Origin: a virus
Lineage: Duplodnaviria > Caudoviricetes
DNA: 44,352 nt
Strand: one strand, 5' to 3'
IMG/VR virus record: IMGVR_UViG_3300047504_000019
Coordinates: 1-44,352 of that record
The position numbers and the translations under genes are program-made. The notes under the pieces were generated by a model, which saw only the letters and a program-made list of their open reading frames with translations, did not search any database and had not been told where the DNA came from. Of this stretch, positions 5,325 to 21,903 are shown piece by piece; position 1 is the stretch's first letter, and each line of letters opens with the position of its first letter.

Positions 5325-8300
5325 TTATCTTCTTGCTCCAGCAGGAATTGAATAATATCCATTCAGCATATTTACTATCGCTCTTGCTTCAGTAGTTAGT
5401 AGTGTATCAGTTATACCCCAGAAGTAGAGTAGTGCATCTACATTAGGATTCCTCTCTCTACAACTTCTCCTTAATTTAGTTCTATCACTCTCTTTATATT
5501 CCTCATATTTATCATAATATTCCCTCTGTAGATATGACTCTGTATCTATGTAGAATAGAGCTAAATCAGAGAAACCAAACTCCTCTGCAATTATACCAGC
5601 AGGTAAAGCTCTCTCTGCTGCTCTGACAGCAGTAGCAAAGTTCTGTAGGCTATAAAGTTGTCCACTCTCATCCAACTTACCTAGTAGCTCCTCTTTATCC
5701 ACAAGAGTCTGTCCCTGCTTCTCTACTATATCAGGTTCTACTTGAGTACCACCAAAAATAGCATGTTGTAGTTTCTCCCACCAACTCCTCTCCATTGTTT
5801 CTATCTCTTGAGGTGTGTAGTTCTCTTTAATTGTACTGAAGAACTTTCTCACAAAAGCAGTATCAACATACTCTTTATCTATAGCAGTCTCATATAAGTG
5901 CATTGCTGCTTGATACCAAGGGATGAACTCTCTTGCTAAACCAGTTACATCCTTACCTAATCTTGATAATACAGTATTCTGTGATTCTTTATTGCCAATT
6001 ACAGCTTGAAGCAAGTCATAAGTAGTTCCTGTCAAGTCTTGCAGCACTCCCACTGTTAATCCACCAAATGACCAGTTAAACATATCCCAAGGACTATAAG
6101 ATTTAGTCTTTCTTCCTGTAAGTTTAGTTAATGCTGCTGCTCCTACAGTTCCTGCAATAACTATAGCTAATACTTCATATAAACCTTTTATTCGTAAATT
6201 CCAAGGAAGACTTTTATCCATAACTTTAGAGACTCTTCTAACCATCATCTCCGCATAACTTCTTGGATATGTGCTCAATCCAAACAGAATCTTTCCTGTA
6301 TCACTATGCTCATACTTACCTCTATAAGCTCTTGTATATCGGTAATGAACAATATCTACTGCTTGGTCAGCTACATATAAAGCTGATGCTTCTGCACCAG
6401 TGAGGTTTGTTAATCCTGGTACAGCAAGACTGGTCTTATTTTCTAAGAGATAATTCATAGCTGCAACTCTTTGTGGTGTCTCCAATACCCAAGCATCAGA
6501 TTTACGCAACCACGCACTAAAGTCTTTCTTCCCTTTAGCACTCTTCAGATACTCATTATTAGCTGCAAGAGCTTTGGTATATGCAGCATGAAAGGTTGAC
6601 TTCCTTGAGAATGTCTCGCTATGAGAGAACATCCCTATCTTACCAGCTAATCTATTAAGAGGTGTGAATATCTTGAGTCCTGATGTCTCTCCTTTTAATA
6701 GAGCATCTCTTCGTATTCCTTCCATCTCACTGGATTTGTTATCAAAGAAGATATGTTCTATCTCTGTCATAGGAGTCTTCAAAGACTTCACCAATCCTAT
6801 CCTATCCCAATAAAACATCAATCCCTGTATAATGTTACGAACAGATAATATAGGATATGTTTCAAAGATTGTAGTATAAGACTGTCCAGCCATATTCATA
6901 GCAAATTGTGTAGCAGCACCTCTTGATGCTCTACGTTGAGTTAGAGTATCAAAGTAATCCCTCATGGTATTACCTATCTCTCTTATCTGCTTATCACTCA
7001 GTTGTCCTTTTGCTTCATCTACTTTTAGCATCTTATTTGCTTGTTGCATAAGAGAAGTCATACGGAAACCTAAATCCTGTTGAGTAACATACTTCACTTC
7101 CCTTTGCCAGAGATTAGCTTCCATTTCAGGTAACTCTATATTCTCTCTAGTTTGTAGAGCACCATAACCAATAGTTTCTGTCCACTTATGCCTTCTCAAT
7201 ACATCAGGATAATATACTTGTGTAGGGGTATATCCTGATTGCATTACCCCCCAAGTACGAGTAGCAAGGAAATCTAAGAGACTATTATCATTATTGGCAG
7301 TAATAAATGCTCCAGCAGTTGTGAAGTCTTCTATATTACCATCTGGTATATCCTTCAAGATAGCATCAACACTACCATCATGTCTATCCCAAGCAGTAGT
7401 AAATCTTCTATATCTAATACCTAACTCTCTAGCTTTATTTATCTTCTCTATTGTATTAGCAAACTCCATCTCTGCATCAGATAATGCAGGATGTTTTATT
7501 CCAGTTTCTTTAACTATCTCAGGATTCCTTGCTCTCAATTCTTGCTCAATCCTTGCAAGTGCAGACTCATCAGTGATAAATCTAGCAAGACGAGGATTAT
7601 TCAAGATAAGATTAAGAGATTTCCTGCTTGTTGCTTCTGATGCTGAATATGCTAACTCAGTGTTATAACTTAAATTATAGTAAGTTTCCCCTGCACCAAT
7701 TCTCTTAGTTGTGGTATCATAATTCATAAAGGTATATTTAAGAGTTTGTACATCTCTTATAAGCTCTCCCAGACCTTTTGTCTTTCTCTGCCACCAGCCT
7801 TTAGGTTTAGGTGGAGGAGGATTAGTCATTCCTTCAAGAGTCAATGGAGGTTGACCACCACTAGCGTCAGAGAGAGTTACTCCAGGGGCTACACCAACAA
7901 CAACAGGAGCAGCCTCTGTAGGAACAGCTCTTTTTATCTGCTTCAATCCAGTTATCTTAGAATATCCTTCAGGTACAGTAGAAGGGATACCAGACAGAGG
8001 AATAAGCTCCTCACCCTGTGCTGCTATAGGAAGAATTGGAGCTTCAGTGGGGACAACTCCAGCTTTAGTGAGAGCACCAAGTAATCCTTCATATTTAGTG
8101 CTAGGAGCAAAGTCTCTCAGTATCCTTATTACATCACTCTGCTTCAATCCATATTTGGTAGCTTCACTAACCACAGACTTCCAAGCATTAACTTCTCTAG
8201 CAAGAACATCTCCGCCTTTAGCAGTAACCAATGGGTCTAGGTTATGTCCTATCTCATGGAGCATAAGCATTGTGGTAAATGTCTTTGCATCTGCATCATT

Positions 8301-11102
8301 ACCTACAAAATCCATGATGTCTTTAGTTCCAACTGTAATCCACTTCTCAACTCCTCCAGTATGATAAGCAGACTCTAATACTGGTACACCCTCATCTATC
8401 AAGACTGAATCAAGACCATATTTCTTCTCTAAAGTCTTACTCAACTTCTCAACATTTGTCTCTAGTTCAAGTTGCAATCTTACTTTATCATTCACAGGAA
8501 TGTAGAGTGAATGTTTCTCTCCATTGAAATCAATAACTGTGTGTGCTGTCTCCAATCCATCAATACTCAACTTAGTTAAGTCTGCTGGACTATATGTATT
8601 ATCAGCATAGATATACCCTTTAGGAGTAAGTACAGTATCCTGCTTAAACATAGTGCCTATCTCTCTAGCTGTAGCATCATCAATACCTTCAATAAAGATA
8701 CTTTCCTCTCCCTTAACATTATTTCCCATCCATACAGCAGAATGATAACTATGAGTTGTCTGTTTTGTCATGTACTCTACAAGTTCAGCACTTCTCTTAA
8801 CATTTAGTTCCTTCTGTTGTTTAGCTGTAAGTCTCTTTGCCTCTTCTGCATTAACCCAGCCAGAGATAATAGCCCAATTCTTTGTCTTTACTGTATCAGC
8901 AAAATAGTTATGTGTATCAACAAACTTCTTAGCCTCAGTCATCTTCTCTTCCTGTTGTTGTGCTTTTATCCCAGATTCTTGCATTTTAGTCTTCTCCACA
9001 GCTTCTGTTACCACTTCAAGACCTTCTTGAGTCTCTCCTAACTGTGTTATTGCTGTAAGGTATGCTTGCTCTTCACTTATCCCTTCTTCTTTCATTAGGG
9101 AATCTACAGTTGCCTTCACTTTCTCTTGATAAACTGAAGATAAGTTATTATTTACATACTTCACCGAGATACCACCACCGAAGAGAGAGAAGGGAAGAAC
9201 CATAACTAATGACTGTAATGTGGTGTTTGAAAGTCCTTCAAAAACTCCTCTACTTTCATCAATAGTCTTTACAGTAGCATTTTGTATAGCCATCTGTACA
9301 ACTTCTTCTAAAGTCTCTGTTAATTCTATTGCACCAGCAGTTCTGATACCCTTCTTTAACAACTGCCTTGCGGTTAGTCCAACTACCTCTTTAGCCATAT
9401 TCTTGTTAAGTATTTTGCTAAAAGCAGGAGACAATGCTTTTAGATATGGTATATCTCCTAGACCTTCAACTGCTGAAATAACAAGACCTATAGGTACAGA
9501 TAATTTATTTGCTTGGTCATACGTTGCTCCATTATTTAGTAAGTCTTGTTTTAGACTATCCATATTTTGAGGAATAAACCAAGCACAACCAACAACACCA
9601 CCCAGTACAGGATTCTTTGTTGCAATAGTAACACCTGTACTAATAGCTACACCAGTTATAGTTGGTAATCCTTGACGAAGAAAAAGATAAGAGAGATAAC
9701 CTGGGTCTAAGAGTAAACTTGGTTGGTTCTCTAGGATGCTAGTAAAACCCTGTTCATATTCAGGTTTAGGAGCTAATTCAGGATGAGAAGTGTACCACTC
9801 TTCATAATTCTGTGTCCATTCAGCTTCTTTCGCTGCTAATTCTATTCTTTTCTCCTCATTAGCTTTATCCAACATAAGTTTCTGTTCATCTGAAGCAAGC
9901 AAAATAGACAAATCCACATGAGGTAAAAGCATACCAATAGGAGAAACCAAAGCAAAAACACCCTTAACCTTCTCCCAAGTGGAGACTTCACCATAAGCAC
10001 TCTCAGGAATATCAGGATAAAGGAGATAACTAGGCAGAGTAGCACCAAAAGTACGCTCTGCTGACAATACTATTCCTCCTTTTGCAGCAACCAAGAAGTC
10101 ATCCCAAGAATCCTGTATTAACCTTTCTTGTATGTAAGATGATGCAGTTGTAATTTGTTTCTCTTCATCAGTCAATACAGGATACCCTCTATCATCCTTA
10201 GAATAAGGAGTAAACTTGTATTGAGATATTTGCTGCTCATAAGCCACAGGGTCATTCTCTTTCAACCAAACCCACTGTGAAGCTAAGGATGAATTATGTG
10301 CATTTAAGTAATCTTGATACAAAATAGCATTATCCTGTACTGATTTATCTTCATTATAAGACAGTCCTACTAGCTCATCAGCCTCTCTAATATAATCTTC
10401 CAGTTGTTGTACTGCCTCATCCTTTGTGGGAGTAATTGGTGTGTACATCTCCTTCAATGCTCCCACAACCTCAGATATATCCTTAGAGAAAGCTACAGTA
10501 GAAGCTATAAGTCTCTGTTCTGCTTCAGGAAGATAAATCTTAGCTTCCTTTGTTGGAGTAAGTAAGTCTTCAGGATTCAAACCAGGAGGAAGTTCCTCTT
10601 CTCCTTCTGTAAAAGTTAATGCAGTTCTAGCATAGTTTAATACCCAATCTCTATCTTCCTGTGTCCAATCCTTCCCACTGATAGGAGCAAAGAGAGCTTC
10701 TAATTCTCCCTCTGACTTGAATTGCATACCAGCAGTATGAAATAAGTTAATAGTATTGATAATCTGTTGAGCTTGTGTAGTAACTCTTTGTTTCCTCGTC
10801 AGTTCATCCACATCTTTAGCTGTCCTTAAAGTGAAGGCTTGTGTTTCACTGGGAGTTAGACCAAGCCGAAGACTAGGAGTACCTAACCTCTCCAATGGAA
10901 GCCATGCACCTACGCTTCTTGCTGCTCTCTCATACCAAGGCTTCTCAGCCCAAGTAGCAGCATAGGTTTGTGCTGTCTGTTGCTGTTGAGCTAACAGACT
11001 TTGCTTCTGTCCTAGAATTGTAGCCTCTGCCTCACTGAAATAAGAAGGCAATGATAGAGGTTTAGTTATAGAAGGATAAAGTAGTTCATCTTCATCAGGC
11101 AT
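5325..11102 (-). CDS. 1925-aa internal virion/ejection polyvalent protein with DUF3293-like and zincin (HEXXH) domains
   Basis: Hydrophobic segments plus ETLEEVVQ; WAIISG...N..RSAEL...EESIFIEGI...FKQDTVL; LHEIGH...REVNAW; lies between portal and scaffold. Confidence 0.75.
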   Translation of the reverse strand: MPDEDELLYPSITKPLSLPSYFSEAEATILGQKQSLLAQQQQTAQTYAATWAEKPWYERAARSVGAWLPLERLGTPSLRLGLTPSETQAFTLRTAKDVDELTRKQRVTTQAQQIINTINLFHTAGMQFKSEGELEALFAPISGKDWTQEDRDWVLNYARTALTFTEGEEELPPGLNPEDLLTPTKEAKIYLPEAEQRLIASTVAFSKDISEVVGALKEMYTPITPTKDEAVQQLEDYIREADELVGLSYNEDKSVQDNAILYQDYLNAHNSSLASQWVWLKENDPVAYEQQISQYKFTPYSKDDRGYPVLTDEEKQITTASSYIQERLIQDSWDDFLVAAKGGIVLSAERTFGATLPSYLLYPDIPESAYGEVSTWEKVKGVFALVSPIGMLLPHVDLSILLASDEQKLMLDKANEEKRIELAAKEAEWTQNYEEWYTSHPELAPKPEYEQGFTSILENQPSLLLDPGYLSYLFLRQGLPTITGVAISTGVTIATKNPVLGGVVGCAWFIPQNMDSLKQDLLNNGATYDQANKLSVPIGLVISAVEGLGDIPYLKALSPAFSKILNKNMAKEVVGLTARQLLKKGIRTAGAIELTETLEEVVQMAIQNATVKTIDESRGVFEGLSNTTLQSLVMVLPFSLFGGGISVKYVNNNLSSVYQEKVKATVDSLMKEEGISEEQAYLTAITQLGETQEGLEVVTEAVEKTKMQESGIKAQQQEEKMTEAKKFVDTHNYFADTVKTKNWAIISGWVNAEEAKRLTAKQQKELNVKRSAELVEYMTKQTTHSYHSAVWMGNNVKGEESIFIEGIDDATAREIGTMFKQDTVLTPKGYIYADNTYSPADLTKLSIDGLETAHTVIDFNGEKHSLYIPVNDKVRLQLELETNVEKLSKTLEKKYGLDSVLIDEGVPVLESAYHTGGVEKWITVGTKDIMDFVGNDADAKTFTTMLMLHEIGHNLDPLVTAKGGDVLAREVNAWKSVVSEATKYGLKQSDVIRILRDFAPSTKYEGLLGALTKAGVVPTEAPILPIAAQGEELIPLSGIPSTVPEGYSKITGLKQIKRAVPTEAAPVVVGVAPGVTLSDASGGQPPLTLEGMTNPPPPKPKGWWQRKTKGLGELIRDVQTLKYTFMNYDTTTKRIGAGETYYNLSYNTELAYSASEATSRKSLNLILNNPRLARFITDESALARIEQELRARNPEIVKETGIKHPALSDAEMEFANTIEKINKARELGIRYRRFTTAWDRHDGSVDAILKDIPDGNIEDFTTAGAFITANNDNSLLDFLATRTWGVMQSGYTPTQVYYPDVLRRHKWTETIGYGALQTRENIELPEMEANLWQREVKYVTQQDLGFRMTSLMQQANKMLKVDEAKGQLSDKQIREIGNTMRDYFDTLTQRRASRGAATQFAMNMAGQSYTTIFETYPILSVRNIIQGLMFYWDRIGLVKSLKTPMTEIEHIFFDNKSSEMEGIRRDALLKGETSGLKIFTPLNRLAGKIGMFSHSETFSRKSTFHAAYTKALAANNEYLKSAKGKKDFSAWLRKSDAWVLETPQRVAAMNYLLENKTSLAVPGLTNLTGAEASALYVADQAVDIVHYRYTRAYRGKYEHSDTGKILFGLSTYPRSYAEMMVRRVSKVMDKSLPWNLRIKGLYEVLAIVIAGTVGAAALTKLTGRKTKSYSPWDMFNWSFGGLTVGVLQDLTGTTYDLLQAVIGNKESQNTVLSRLGKDVTGLAREFIPWYQAAMHLYETAIDKEYVDTAFVRKFFSTIKENYTPQEIETMERSWWEKLQHAIFGGTQVEPDIVEKQGQTLVDKEELLGKLDESGQLYSLQNFATAVRAAERALPAGIIAEEFGFSDLALFYIDTESYLQREYYDKYEEYKESDRTKLRRSCRERNPNVDALLYFWGITDTLLTTEARAIVNMLNGYYSIPAGARR

Positions 11103-15605: not shown

Positions 15606-15635
15606 ATTATACCACATCGAAGAAGGAGGAGTCAA
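15606..15635 (-). promoter_or_regulatory. Sigma-A promoter for the packaging operon
   Basis: TTGACT-18 nt-TATAAT with extended -10 TG. Confidence 0.7.
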
Positions 15636-15710: not shown

Positions 15711-16319
15711 TCATTGCTGAGAGATTTCATCCCTGTTTTTCCACAAATACTTAATATAGAGATGTTTACGAGAACGAGGTCTCCATTCACCCTTTAACTC
15801 CGAATACTTGACTCCCTTCAACTTACCAACTGGTTTTCCGCCAATAAAGAGGTCTGTTTTAGGTGCTGTTAATCCCTGATACTTAAAGTTACTGGCTTGA
15901 TATATTATTCCAGTATGACCATAAGCAGTATCAGCATAAGTGATAATTCCTCTTAAAGAAGGTCTTAGTTTTCTTAACAATCTCAAACTAATAGCTATTA
16001 CCCTGCTTTCACTATTCTTAGGGAGTTCATCTGACAGAGCTAAACGAGTCAATTCCATGAAGTCTGATTGTGTATCCTTTGTGTAAATCCCCTTAATAGC
16101 TGGAGCATTAGGTATTCCATATGAGATAGCTCCAAATAATACATCATTATAATATACACCAAAATTGAAAGTGGATAAGAAACCTTTATCACCAAAGTAA
16201 TGCCACTTATGATAAGCCTCTGATGCTGTCTTCTTATCTACCTGTTTTAATTTTAGTTGGAGCGGTGAAGTCGGAATTGAACCGCTATCTTCTACTTGGT
16301 TCAGTAGTTGTTCTGCCAT
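15711..16319 (-). CDS. mom: Mom-family adenine modification enzyme (GNAT fold); likely start ATG 16319
   Basis: HKWHY, GAISYG.P, ELTRLALSDELPKNSESRVIA, IITYADTAYGHTGIIYQASNF.Y.G and KHLY motifs; TAATG overlap with the polA stop. Confidence 0.85.
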   Translation of the reverse strand: MAEQLLNQVEDSGSIPTSPLQLKLKQVDKKTASEAYHKWHYFGDKGFLSTFNFGVYYNDVLFGAISYGIPNAPAIKGIYTKDTQSDFMELTRLALSDELPKNSESRVIAISLRLLRKLRPSLRGIITYADTAYGHTGIIYQASNFKYQGLTAPKTDLFIGGKPVGKLKGVKYSELKGEWRPRSRKHLYIKYLWKNRDEISQQ

Positions 16320-16333
16320 TAAACTATCACCGC
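16258..16333 (-). tRNA. Non-canonical tRNA-Gly-like element, 76 nt with encoded CCA
   Basis: GCGGTGA TA GTTT AATGGCA GAAC A ACTAC TGAACCAA GTAGA AGAT AGCGG TTCAATT CCGACT TCACCGC T CCA: perfect 7-bp acceptor stem, D arm, TTC loop, U73; irregular anticodon loop; bulged T stem. Confidence 0.85.
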
Positions 16334-17944
16334 ATGTAAATCTAACCAGTTCTTGCCTGTCGTTACATCCCATAGCACAGCCATCTCACAAAGGTTATCT
16401 AGGATATGTGCATCAGGAAGAGTAATAACAGATAATAATAACTCATCATGTATAGTGGTAGCAATCTTATACTCAGCTAATCTCACCATAGCTAACTTGA
16501 GTATCTCTGCTGCTGTACCCTGCACAATAGAGTTCACTACCTTTAACAATGGTTCATATCCCTCTTCCTCACCCTCTTCCATACTTTCTAATGTCCTCTT
16601 CCTACCCATCCAAGTAGTGATATATCCATCTCTTGCTGCTTGTCTCTCTATCTCATCCTTCCAATCCCTGAATTCATGGTAATCATCATAATAAGCATGG
16701 AGTAGAGTTTTAGCATCTTCATAAGAGATATTATCACCATGACGATGACTTGTCTCTACTAACTTACTCTCCCCTGCACCATAACTGGATGCTAATACTA
16801 ACTGTTTAGCTGTATATCTCTTTATATTATATCTCTGTGCTATAGGTAAATAAATATCTCCTGTAGCTAAATCTCCCATCATCTTTTTATCTTTAGAGAA
16901 CCATGCCATAATCCTTGGTTCTATCTGTGAAGCATCTGCATCCCAGAATATCTCTCCTGCATCAGGTAAATATTGGTCTCTTAAATGTTCTGGTATATTC
17001 TGAGGATTAGGTTTAGAACCTGCAAATCTACCTGTCCTTACTACATGATACACAGGATAGATTCTCTCCCTATCCAAGAATGGTTTAATGAATGTAGCAT
17101 AGAGAGTATGTTTCTCTCTATATTTCAAAGTAAGTTTAGCTATCTCTGAAGTCTCCATCAATGATAGTAATGCTTCCTCTCCTGTTCTCATATTACCCTT
17201 GGAACTGAATGATGTGATTATACCTTGCTCAGATAAAGCTATGCCTATACTCCTAGGAGATGCTGGATTGAAATGAAGCATAGTCACACAGACATCCTTG
17301 AGGTCATCAACAATGCCCTTATACTCTGTATTTCTCTTCCTGAGCAGTTCTTTATCTAGTCTGATTCCTCTCCTCTGCATAGCTAACACAATAGGAAGTA
17401 TCTCTTTATCTAAATGGTAAGAAGCATTGTCATTCTCTATCTTACTATATATCTTATATGTGCCTATACTGTGCATATTACATATCTCTGCTATGTCCTT
17501 AAATGCACAATCCTTCAGAGTCTTCTTCTTAATCTTAACTCCAGCTTCATTATAGAGTAGAGACTGTACTGCTTTCCAACTGAAAGAGAATGGAAAGGAT
17601 AAATCCCCTAACTTAGCTGGATACCCCTGTGCTTGAGCCATAAGCATAGTGTCATCTATCCAGTTGATATGATGACCAGCAGATTCTAAATTGAAGACAT
17701 CAAAGAGGACATTATGCCATACACTAGGAATCTTTTCTAACAGAGACCATACTTTGCTTATATCTTCATCATCAGAACTGAAAGCAATGGATGTATCTGG
17801 AGAGATAGCAAGAGAGATACAGAGAAGTTCTTTATTATCTTCACTTACTGTTTCTGTATCTGCTGCTACAAGAGTGCTTTGCTGGAGTTCATTCCAGACT
17901 TCATCTCTGCTCTGGAAGATTCTAGGACTACTAACTAAAAGCAT
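16319..17944 (-). CDS. polA: Family A DNA polymerase with 3'-5' exonuclease
   Basis: DTET, HNVLFD, DDTML, RTGRF...PNPQNIP, DASQIEPRI (motif A), AKQLVLASSYG (motif B), VQGTAA, IHDE (motif C). Confidence 0.95.
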   Translation of the reverse strand: MLLVSSPRIFQSRDEVWNELQQSTLVAADTETVSEDNKELLCISLAISPDTSIAFSSDDEDISKVWSLLEKIPSVWHNVLFDVFNLESAGHHINWIDDTMLMAQAQGYPAKLGDLSFPFSFSWKAVQSLLYNEAGVKIKKKTLKDCAFKDIAEICNMHSIGTYKIYSKIENDNASYHLDKEILPIVLAMQRRGIRLDKELLRKRNTEYKGIVDDLKDVCVTMLHFNPASPRSIGIALSEQGIITSFSSKGNMRTGEEALLSLMETSEIAKLTLKYREKHTLYATFIKPFLDRERIYPVYHVVRTGRFAGSKPNPQNIPEHLRDQYLPDAGEIFWDADASQIEPRIMAWFSKDKKMMGDLATGDIYLPIAQRYNIKRYTAKQLVLASSYGAGESKLVETSHRHGDNISYEDAKTLLHAYYDDYHEFRDWKDEIERQAARDGYITTWMGRKRTLESMEEGEEEGYEPLLKVVNSIVQGTAAEILKLAMVRLAEYKIATTIHDELLLSVITLPDAHILDNLCEMAVLWDVTTGKNWLDLHAVIV

Positions 17945-19935: not shown

Positions 19936-20627
19936 ATATTCCTCAACTTATTTATCAATGTCTCCACACTCTCAAATGTAGGCTCTTCTATCTCCAATCC
20001 CTCAGCCTTTAATGTCAATCCACAATCCTTCACTGTGTACACAGGCTTACCATCCCTCTTACTGGACTGTAACACTACATCAGCAAGGTCTCCTGTGTAC
20101 TTAAATCCATCAGCTTCCATCTCTCCAGTAGGCTTACCCTCTTTATATACCTCTTTAAGATGATGTACCAGTATAAGATTCTTCCCATGTATCTTAGCTT
20201 GAGTGAGCAGCATCTTCATATCAGTATTAGGGATGAAGTATTCCTGTGGCATAAGATTCCTTCTCTCAGATTCCCCTTTAGCTTTTGCTTCAACATTCAA
20301 CTCAGCAAGATAAGCTAATCGTCTTAACTCCCACACTGCTGTGAAAGTATCAAAAGCAACAGACTTCACCTCTTTATCTTCCAGAGCATCATTATACTCT
20401 TTAAGTAATCTATCCCACTCCTTCATCACAAAAGCTGCTTGCTTCTTTTTATTGATGATAGCTAATGTTCCATAATCCAGAATAGTAATCTTATCCTTTG
20501 GAGGTCTATACTTAGGTTCTACTCTATCCACACCCAAATCAAAATCAAAATACACTATCTTCTGTGGTGCTGATTGAGCAAAGGTACTCTTAGTTGTCTT
20601 TCTAACTCCCTCTAATGATATTATCAT
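19932..20627 (-). CDS. AAA_24/Sak4-like ATPase, putative recombinase
   Basis: Degenerate Walker A GVRKTTKST, FDFDLG, VAFDT, LILVHH. Confidence 0.7.
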   Translation of the reverse strand: MIISLEGVRKTTKSTFAQSAPQKIVYFDFDLGVDRVEPKYRPPKDKITILDYGTLAIINKKKQAAFVMKEWDRLLKEYNDALEDKEVKSVAFDTFTAVWELRRLAYLAELNVEAKAKGESERRNLMPQEYFIPNTDMKMLLTQAKIHGKNLILVHHLKEVYKEGKPTGEMEADGFKYTGDLADVVLQSSKRDGKPVYTVKDCGLTLKAEGLEIEEPTFESVETLINKLRNM

Positions 20628-21274
20628 TTATCCTCCTTCTTTATCCATTGACCCCACATCTCAGGTGTCATTACTGTATCAGCTAAACCATAACTAATAG
20701 CTTCCTCTGGCTCTAACCAGAAGTCTCTATCCACATCTCTCAATATAGTATCTCTATCTGCTTTCACTCCACATTCCTGTAGCATATCTACCATCTTCTC
20801 TTTATACTTCTGCATCTCAGTATGCTGTATCTCCCACTCATGTATATCACCCTCTATCATACCACTAGGAAGATGAAGCATAACCTTAGCATGAGGAGAC
20901 AAATATCTCTTACTTCCTGCTGCTAAAAGCAATGCTGCTCCTGATACACAGATTCTACCTAGCATCTCCACAGGAGACTTAATCAACTTAATAACATCAT
21001 AGAGTAGAAATACTATATTCAAATCTCCTCCCATTGATGTTATCACCATCCTTATAGGGTCATGGGAAAGAGAATCTAATGCCATCAGAGTGTTTAGCAT
21101 CCCTGTATCTGTTGAACCTGTTAGTGCTTTTGCAGGATTCCCCATACCAATAAGGCTATCAAAGAATATCATTCTATGTTGTAACAACATGTGTTCATAC
21201 CAACCTACTAACTGGTCATCATGGACTAATTCATGTCCCTTTTCTGTTTTAACTATTCTTGGATATAACATCAT
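20624..21274 (-). CDS. clpP: ClpP-family serine protease
   Basis: ITSMGGD, CVSGAALLLAAG (Ser), MLHLPSG (His), DRDFWL...EAISYGLAD (Asp). Confidence 0.9.
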   Translation of the reverse strand: MMLYPRIVKTEKGHELVHDDQLVGWYEHMLLQHRMIFFDSLIGMGNPAKALTGSTDTGMLNTLMALDSLSHDPIRMVITSMGGDLNIVFLLYDVIKLIKSPVEMLGRICVSGAALLLAAGSKRYLSPHAKVMLHLPSGMIEGDIHEWEIQHTEMQKYKEKMVDMLQECGVKADRDTILRDVDRDFWLEPEEAISYGLADTVMTPEMWGQWIKKEDK

Positions 21275-21903
21275 TTCTTCTCCTCAATCATACAACGTAA
21301 TCTATATCTACAATCCTTGCACAGCCAATCTTCACTTGTCCTAGTTGGTAATGTATGAGTGCTTAATGCTATCTTCAATATCTCTACATTACCAAGTACC
21401 ATTCCCCAATTCTCCCCCAACTCTCTACTTGTAAACTCTATATGATAATTAAGCAACTCTGGATGTATAAGAGTAAATATCAATAACTCTCCCTCAGTAA
21501 CTTTCAGTCCATAACAGTATCCCATTAGTTGCTTTATCCAATGCTGAGGGAAGTCATGGGAATCAAGTCTCTTCCTACCAATCCTAGTAGTCTTCAACTC
21601 TACTGGAGTCCCTTTAACAGTCTCGAAATCAGGATTCAAGAGGATACCATCTAACTTCATTTCTGTCTCTCCAACAGTTGAAGCCAAATGTAATACCTCT
21701 TGCAACCCTAACCCTAAGATAAAGTAAAGCAATTCATCCTCAGTGGGTGGGAGAGCATCAACCTTATCCCAATATGCTTTTCTAAGGCAGAGTAAACAAT
21801 CTGTCAGATGAATACCCTCACGCTGATGCAGTAACTTGAAGTGTTCTTTCAAATTCTGTAACAGTGTATCTATGAACTCAGGTTGTGTCTCCCACACCTT
21901 CAT
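21271..21903 (-). CDS. Cas4-like PD-(D/E)XK exonuclease
   Basis: CLRKAYW, PD...ELKT, QLMGY, CKDCRYRLRC (four-Cys pattern). Confidence 0.85.
   Translation of the reverse strand: MKVWETQPEFIDTLLQNLKEHFKLLHQREGIHLTDCLLCLRKAYWDKVDALPPTEDELLYFILGLGLQEVLHLASTVGETEMKLDGILLNPDFETVKGTPVELKTTRIGRKRLDSHDFPQHWIKQLMGYCYGLKVTEGELLIFTLIHPELLNYHIEFTSRELGENWGMVLGNVEILKIALSTHTLPTRTSEDWLCKDCRYRLRCMIEEKK

Follow-up and report, generated by a model that had tools for sequence, protein, structure and literature searches.

A conserved tRNA-Gly-like RNA family in and beside phage mom genes: a probable private glycine donor for DNA modification

The record IMGVR_UViG_3300047504_000019 (44,352 nucleotides, analyzed in full and denoted the window below) is a complete-looking 44-kb virus record that is identified as a tailed phage by its capsid, terminase and polymerase genes (PHROGs annotation) and contains a single gene for Mom, an enzyme that modifies and disguises DNA. 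On the minus strand, a 76-nt RNA cloverleaf (16333→16258) covers the end of polA, which encodes a family A DNA polymerase, and the beginning of the Mom-family gene; its presence there is confirmed, and it is a member of a widespread, conserved family of tRNA-Gly-like RNAs located in or beside phage mom genes. On the strength of comparative sequence evidence, we estimate at roughly 70% the probability that this RNA is a private, translation-excluded glycine donor for Mom. A first-pass annotation of this DNA had described the cloverleaf with its perfect acceptor stem, U73 and CCA, all of which were recovered here, and had proposed the private donor, an interpretation that is supported in that every computationally testable prediction held. 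The features of the locus are the following.

16258..16333, minus strand (16333→16258): 76-nt tRNA-Gly-like RNA, a member of the 6-nt-loop subtype within the Mom-associated family (91.2 bits with our own covariance model R1, the training set of which includes this RNA)
16327..16333, minus strand: 5' strand of the acceptor stem (G1 C2 G3…), from the sequence
16331-16326, minus strand: Shine-Dalgarno (SD)-like stretch, RNA nt 3-8, ending 6 nt 5' of the ATG, from duplex energy
16317..16321, minus strand: TAATG in the D arm, where the polA stop (16321-16319) overlaps the likely mom start (16319-16317)
16292..16307, minus strand: anticodon-like arm with a 5-bp stem and the 6-nt loop GAACCA, C35/C36 at 16299-16298, from covariation
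16269..16286, minus strand: T arm, in which pairs 51-63 and 50-64 flank a bulged A (16271), from covariation
16258..16268, minus strand: 3' strand of the acceptor stem, discriminator U73 (16261) and encoded CCA, in frame as …TSPLQ, from the sequence
15711..16319, minus strand: mom gene, encoding 202 aa when read from the ATG in the D loop, with the GNAT/Mom domain at 16256-15855, from Pfam, PDB match and fold
16319..17944, minus strand: polA, the last five codons of which, including the stop, are RNA nt 1-15

The window RNA has an acceptor stem with 7/7 pairs (GCGGTGA/TCACCGC), the D loop AATGGCA, the T loop TTCAATT and the T stem AGCGG/CCG-A-CT, in which A49-U65 and G50-C64 are followed by the bulge and C51-G63. 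The cloverleaf, the 7-bp acceptor stem and CCA are traits of a canonical tRNA-Gly; a 7-nt anticodon loop with U33 and an uninterrupted 5-bp T stem are lacking, the triplet in the anticodon register being ACC and position 33 being A. The identity set of bacterial glycyl-tRNA synthetase (GlyRS), namely G1-C72, C2-G71, U73, C35 and C36, is present in full; the first-pass annotation had named these elements in agreement with PMC9976931. With the Rfam tRNA model, the RNA scores 29.8 bits (E 5.7e-4), the gathering score being 29, with the generic tRNA family being the only one matched in the Rfam search, and ARAGORN calls no tRNA anywhere in the window. The RNA strand folds better than shuffled sequences (z -2.68; 2 of 200 shuffles equally good); its minimum-energy fold differs from the cloverleaf, which costs 0.7 kcal/mol more.

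The adjacent open reading frame (ORF) is assigned to Mom by Pfam (PF25680, 130.8 bits compared with a curated cut-off of 27.1), by a sequence match to PDB 8bv8 and by its predicted fold, for which 8bv8 is the best Foldseek match (E 1.2e-12, TM 0.60-0.65). It shares enzyme family, fold and catalytic residues with Mom of phage Mu (Silva et al., 2026; PMC13219725): it has equivalents of Mu H58, Y59, R111, S124, D149 and Y159, which do not vary across 114 of 114 aligned homologues, R111, S124, D149 and Y159 having been placed by the 8bv8 alignment and the H58-Y59 pair by the family alignment. Mu Mom glycylates adenine at N6 with Gly-tRNA(Gly) as the donor and rejects glycine carried on tRNA-Ala (PMC13219725); the first-pass annotation had named Gly-tRNA(Gly) as the Mom donor, correctly according to this study. 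The Mu enzyme was characterized with host tRNAs, whereas the window gene itself includes a tRNA-like RNA and Mu R151 is not conserved. The Mom reading frame passes through the RNA, with an ATG at RNA nt 15 that overlaps the polA stop. The longest mom ORF opens at 16373, within polA; this ATG was set aside as the mom start given that it lies in polA sequence common to a sister phage without mom.

The linkage between the RNA and Mom was assessed from both sides. On the protein side, 152 loci were fetched by Mom peptide patterns, a single one of which falls outside the catalytic domain while none covers the RNA, and searched with R1, which was built from 32 copies. The family RNA was found in 85 of these 152 loci (55/99 and 30/53), including 29 of the 52 metagenome loci outside the training set and all 11 closest ones; this count leaves out one 23-bit match, and the match in L062 is an ordinary tRNA. 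On the RNA side, a DNA pattern in which the T arm exceeds the normal length by one base yielded 120 viral matches, 80 of them with 1-kb flanks, and Pfam Mom was detected within 1 kb of 63 of these 80 (27 + 36). With our own Mom profile, 65 of the 80 pattern matches are Mom-linked, compared with 0 of 80 ordinary-length viral tRNA loci retrieved with the normal-length version of this pattern; 4 of the 17 remaining pattern matches have a Mom match elsewhere in the record. In cellular genomes, Mom lies within 1 kb of 26 of 40 cloverleaf-forming matches (two of which look like false cloverleaves) compared with 0 of 40 matches that do not form a cloverleaf.

The comparison of these sequences indicates that the cloverleaf fold is under selection. 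As the first-pass annotation had predicted, covariation is present among homologues, and it extends to all four stems. In the subtype of the window (32 sequences), two-sided changes occur in 16 of the 22 pairs and 98% of the cells pair (0 of 500 shuffles); pairing drops to 43-53% in slid registers, and RNAalifold, unaided, predicts the same cloverleaf. The second subtype (26 copies) has two-sided changes in 15 of 22 pairs, the members of both sets having been picked by length and register. Pair 31-38 is UA in 17, CG in 13 and UG in 2 of the 32 sequences of the window's subtype, and because this pair covaries, the anticodon loop is 6 nt long; the first-pass annotation had allowed 6 or 8 nt, and the 8-nt reading is rejected. 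The bulged A that it had noted in the T stem is located at 16271, and the pairs flanking it covary on both sides. The 5' acceptor strand, which was outside the search pattern, forms 7/7 pairs in 115 of 127 distinct elements as against 7% with swapped partners. Among the ORF-embedded copies, a set chosen by the RNA model (41 supplied, one dropped as short), the third codon position at nt 71 is G in 40 of 40, compared with a background of 19% in the same genes, and that at nt 74 is C in 34 of 37 Leu CTN codons, compared with 12%.

The features required for glycylation are conserved to a much greater extent than those of decoding. This comparison involved 70 distinct elements from Mom-selected loci, after removal of duplicates, L062, the second L092 match, a partial match and L381. 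G1-C72 and C2-G71 are present in all 70, G3-C70 in 65 and U73 in 66; CC in the anticodon-like loop was found in 67 (the other three were not parsed), and CCA is encoded in 49, so that the conservation of U73-CCA anticipated by the first-pass annotation is observed, including at synonymous codon positions. The anticodon-like loop has 7 nt in a single element, 6 nt in 34 and 5 nt in 22, the 6-nt loop being found in 1 of 42 control viral tRNA-Gly; the T-stem bulge is present in 68 elements; the D-loop GG is retained in 35, as against 41 of the 42 controls; U55 and U33 are found in 33 and 44 elements, respectively; and position 34 varies (T in 50, mostly TCC, A in 9, C in 8). The absence of the bulge and the presence of U33, U55 and CC in the controls follow from their selection and are not counted as evidence. 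Ordinary phage tRNA-Gly (RF00005) have the cloverleaf, G1-C72, C2-G71, U73, CC and CCA in common with the Mom-linked family, but ordinary-length viral tRNAs are not linked to Mom (0/80).

These traits bear on the possibility that the RNA is a general glycine-tRNA supplement that refills a pool drained by Mom, or a decoy for toxins directed at tRNA-Gly, rather than the preferred substrate of Mom. It is known that defences aimed at tRNAs can be offset by phage tRNAs (PMC10264068, PMC11555353), the toxin TacT reads U73 and G71 of tRNA-Gly (PMC9976931), some family members are located away from mom, and the closed 32-38 pair of the second subtype also occurs in 11 of the 42 ordinary viral tRNA-Gly. 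The 6-nt loop, the free position 34, the loss of U33 and of the D-loop GG, and the T-stem bulge all argue against decoding, however, and none of the 80 ordinary-length viral tRNAs adjoins Mom, so we consider a supplement or decoy quite improbable.

For the private donor, there is a close parallel in the staphylococcal non-proteinogenic (NP) tRNAs NP1-NP3, the donors of FmhB and other Fem ligases, in which a glycine-identity tRNA is likewise diverted to a GNAT-fold transferase and the T stem is altered where EF-Tu reads it (PMC7826273, PMC3239215). EF-Tu sequesters Gly-tRNA from FmhB, and staphylococci therefore use a weakly binding tRNA-Gly (PMC7826273). EF-Tu reads the T stem at three base pairs (PMC3239215), namely the first three, 49-65, 50-64 and 51-63 (PMC7826273), as the first-pass annotation had stated, and the bulge between 51-63 and 50-64 falls among these pairs that set EF-Tu affinity; by analogy, it would weaken EF-Tu binding as the choice of base pairs does in the NP tRNAs. 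In the latter, EF-Tu binding is weakened by A49-U65, U50-A64 and A51-U63 in an otherwise normal tRNA, and the genes are separate chromosomal ones (PMC7826273); the Mom-linked family, in contrast, combines the bulge with a 5-6 nt loop, is viral, presumably serves DNA modification and often overlaps the ORF of the enzyme. The window RNA does not have this set of T-stem pairs and is not a member of the NP group, but it may work in the same way.

The arrangement of the RNA relative to mom was compared for 123 elements with at least six acceptor pairs (4 of the 127 were left out). The RNA is in frame at the mom 5' end in 44 and is read through at the mom 3' end in 38, in 37 of these in the same frame; in 8 it holds the mom stop in its first bases, in 7 it follows mom, in 2 it precedes it, in 1 it is on the opposite strand, and in 23 no Mom was found in the flank, which is often short. 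Thus, the location of the RNA inside the mom gene, as described in the first-pass annotation, holds for the window, where it also covers the last 15 nt of polA, but is not obligatory, since relatives have 3' copies or separate neighbouring ones. In L105 and L122, the RNA is about 1.3-1.7 kb from mom, and in L073 (2237-2313), L096 (1751-1823), L100 (2165-2237) and also L438 it lies just downstream of mom on the opposite strand. A start codon after CCA was flagged in only one of the 5' fusions, so most 5'-fused RNAs must be translated as well. An in-frame start at nt 9-22, mostly at nt 15, is found in 26 of 66 open 5' copies. The acceptor strand of the window forms an SD-like duplex of -9.0 kcal/mol with an anti-SD 13-mer; the corresponding means are -7.0 for copies with a D-loop start (n=26), -4.5 for other 5' copies (n=40) and -2.8 for copies after mom (n=53).

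Such an arrangement could also be expected of a tRNA mimic that acts only in cis, limiting a toxic enzyme by hiding the ribosome-binding site, by RNase P cutting or as an operator for Mom or GlyRS, and never donates glycine. In the 44 5' fusions and the 38 read-through copies alike, processing would destroy the message, and the stronger SD-like acceptor strands of the copies with a D-loop start fit this explanation. Nevertheless, the identity set is kept when the RNA is wholly after the mom stop, upstream with a gap of its own, 1.3-1.7 kb away or on the opposite strand, placements that a cis element would not tolerate, and the acceptor end with U73 is what a charged donor needs. A role in cis alone is therefore unlikely.

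The 5' fusions are also relevant to a third alternative, namely that the element is a relic, either of a captured tRNA gene or of an attachment site, and now provides both an anchor for recombination and the N-terminal coding sequence of Mom, the fold being left over. An identical RNA precedes Mom domains that are only 36% identical in L021 and L041, from which it follows that the domains were swapped at the CCA junction; the encoded peptide outlasts the fold in one Mom subclade; and the codon at the anticodon encodes Phe in 36 of the 44 5' copies compared with 11 of the 38 read-through copies. All this is compatible with a relic, but the compensatory changes alter encoded amino acids while synonymous positions are frozen, the fold is retained in non-coding copies, which have stops in the Mom frame, the features are unlike those of any host tRNA usable as an integration target, and no integrase was recognised among the 44 window ORFs (PHROGs). 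The relic explanation is largely refuted by the covariation and appears highly improbable.

The translated RNA peptide opens 105 of 120 close Mom homologues, an odd N-terminus that they share because gene callers translate the RNA as protein. In 5'-fused copies, the stretch that forms the anticodon arm often codes for a [QE]xxLF-like peptide (window 16313-16296; L021-L048; P0001-P0120); a loose version of this pattern is present in 70 of 112 Mom homologues, and the window copy has lost the Phe. Such peptides resemble the beta-clamp-binding motif. Several close Mom relatives without the fold (L024, L026-L030, L032, L033, L049) still begin with a QxxLF…PTSPK-like sequence that appears to be a fossil of the RNA at the protein level. 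The view of the first-pass annotation that the N-terminal peptide is simply translated RNA is probably incorrect, given that an RNA-less subclade keeps LF…PTSP and that residues 31-40 of the window Mom are modelled at a pLDDT of ~90.

Several observations weigh against a private donor. Mu Mom accepts all three E. coli tRNA-Gly isoacceptors (PMC13219725), which in principle makes a private donor dispensable. R151, essential in vivo for Mu Mom (PMC13219725), is Ala in the window and Arg in 2 of 114 close homologues, which lowers the certainty of identical chemistry but not that of Mom family membership. CCA is not encoded in 21 of the 70 elements, and 67 of the 152 Mom loci have no RNA nearby, many of these loci being truncated. 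In five near-complete Mom records searched whole, no family-type RNA was found (three had no match, and the matches read in the other two looked like ordinary-length tRNAs). In cellular genomes, 14 of the 40 cloverleaf matches have no Mom within 1 kb; among the genomes lacking it there, Mom was found elsewhere above the cut-off in 3 of 11 that were checked. A Mom subclade nested among the relatives of the window (five members in a quick tree used for this nesting alone) has lost the RNA fold and keeps the LF…PTSP peptide, and in L433 the usual place of mom is taken by a gene for a C5 cytosine methylase (994-2025), whose frame reads through the RNA. Finally, the sequences are related, so the counts overstate independence, and the 70-element and codon-position sets were both selected with the RNA model.

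Under the private donor scenario, the RNA would be cut from the polA-mom transcript, probably by RNase P at G1 with trimming at CCA, and charged with glycine by the host GlyRS. The charged RNA would be kept from EF-Tu, presumably by weak binding, and from the ribosome, and would be delivered to Mom, which would then glycylate adenine in phage DNA. The likely ribosome-binding site appears to be hidden by the acceptor stem and the likely start codon to lie in the D loop, and with both inside the fold, a given transcript would serve as message for Mom or become donor RNA, but not both. With a cut at G1, the polA message would lose its stop, a cut at CCA would behead mom, and ribosomes that terminate at TAATG would tip the balance towards the enzyme over the donor. 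We tentatively suggest, at somewhat less than even odds, a one-gene, two-product system, in which the RNA is ribosome-binding site, start and N-terminal code and, when cut, the donor. Folding and processing would then turn the enzyme off while making its co-substrate, a self-switching design that would also offer a fixed junction for swapping unrelated Mom domains.

In the one sister phage locus found via polA (L400; polA 85% identical), RNA and mom are both absent from the site. Because the match between L400 and the window reaches up to the base that precedes G1 and is taken up again at a promoter-like block beyond mom, the comparison indicates that RNA and mom constitute one unit of about 700 bp. 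L400 is a 6-kb fragment, and the difference may reflect either gain or loss. The far edge of the insert is marked by the following feature.

15606..15635, minus strand: sigma-70-like promoter after mom, 11/12 matches

The window and L400 have 15 nt in common around the -10 hexamer of this promoter, located in L400 about 40 nt past the polA stop, and the small gene beyond the promoter also differs between the two. No promoter-like site was seen just upstream of the RNA. Elsewhere in the window, genes for a ClpP-like protease and a Cas4-like nuclease (20624-21274 and 21271-21903; PHROGs) are located among replication genes, and the structural region includes a 1925-aa ORF (5325-11102) without a PHROGs match.

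With respect to the distribution of the family, a tblastn search returned 283 phage records with Mom-like matches, none reaching 60% identity, blastn with the window RNA gave weak matches only, and the GTDB genome collection yielded no member of the close Mom clade of the window. Dehalococcoidia loci have 5'-fused copies, their Mom domains being about 34-43% identical (partial alignments). Nine loci (L108, L116, L117, L137, L168, L177, L181, L187, L190) contain members of only 69 nt, in which the D-arm region is very short but which nonetheless keep the acceptor stem, the CC loop and the T bulge. An alphaproteobacterial bulged, 6-nt-loop tRNA-Gly-like gene (L425, L484; about 950-1075) was identified in the absence of any Mom found in the genome and is possibly a donor for another enzyme. 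The cultured Salinibacter phage B2_17 carries a family member annotated as tRNA-Gly (OR896349.1, L399; 2262-2337), directly 3' of the stop of a mom-like gene (about 1640-2260) that appears frameshifted in the deposit. Standard tools recover the family in part: the Rfam tRNA threshold, at which the family scores sit, is passed by 6 of 19 family loci, and ARAGORN calls a tRNA in 20 of 57, labelling 5 as Gly.

Both parts of the proposed system have known analogues, Mu Mom and the staphylococcal NP tRNA-Gly. No description of a Mom-linked tRNA-like RNA was found in the literature searched, which took in few subscription papers. The main text and two supplements of PMC13219725 mention no phage-encoded or overlapping tRNA, the preprint of this donor study has nothing on gene context in the passages covered, the jumbo-phage review PMC7824862 describes no such RNA in the passages covered, and Mom is absent from the main text of the viral structured-RNA survey PMC10690425.

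The use of charged tRNA by Mom has been worked out only recently. If the private donor is real, more than half of the sampled mom loci hold a non-ribosomal glycine source, which would explain how the enzyme competes with EF-Tu for Gly-tRNA, and non-proteinogenic tRNAs would extend from cell-wall synthesis to viral DNA modification. Independently of function, the analysis defines an RNA family that is mostly missed by tRNA finders and translated as protein by gene callers, with a cultured carrier in Salinibacter phage B2_17, and this family may offer a natural design for a tRNA that is excluded from EF-Tu yet chargeable.
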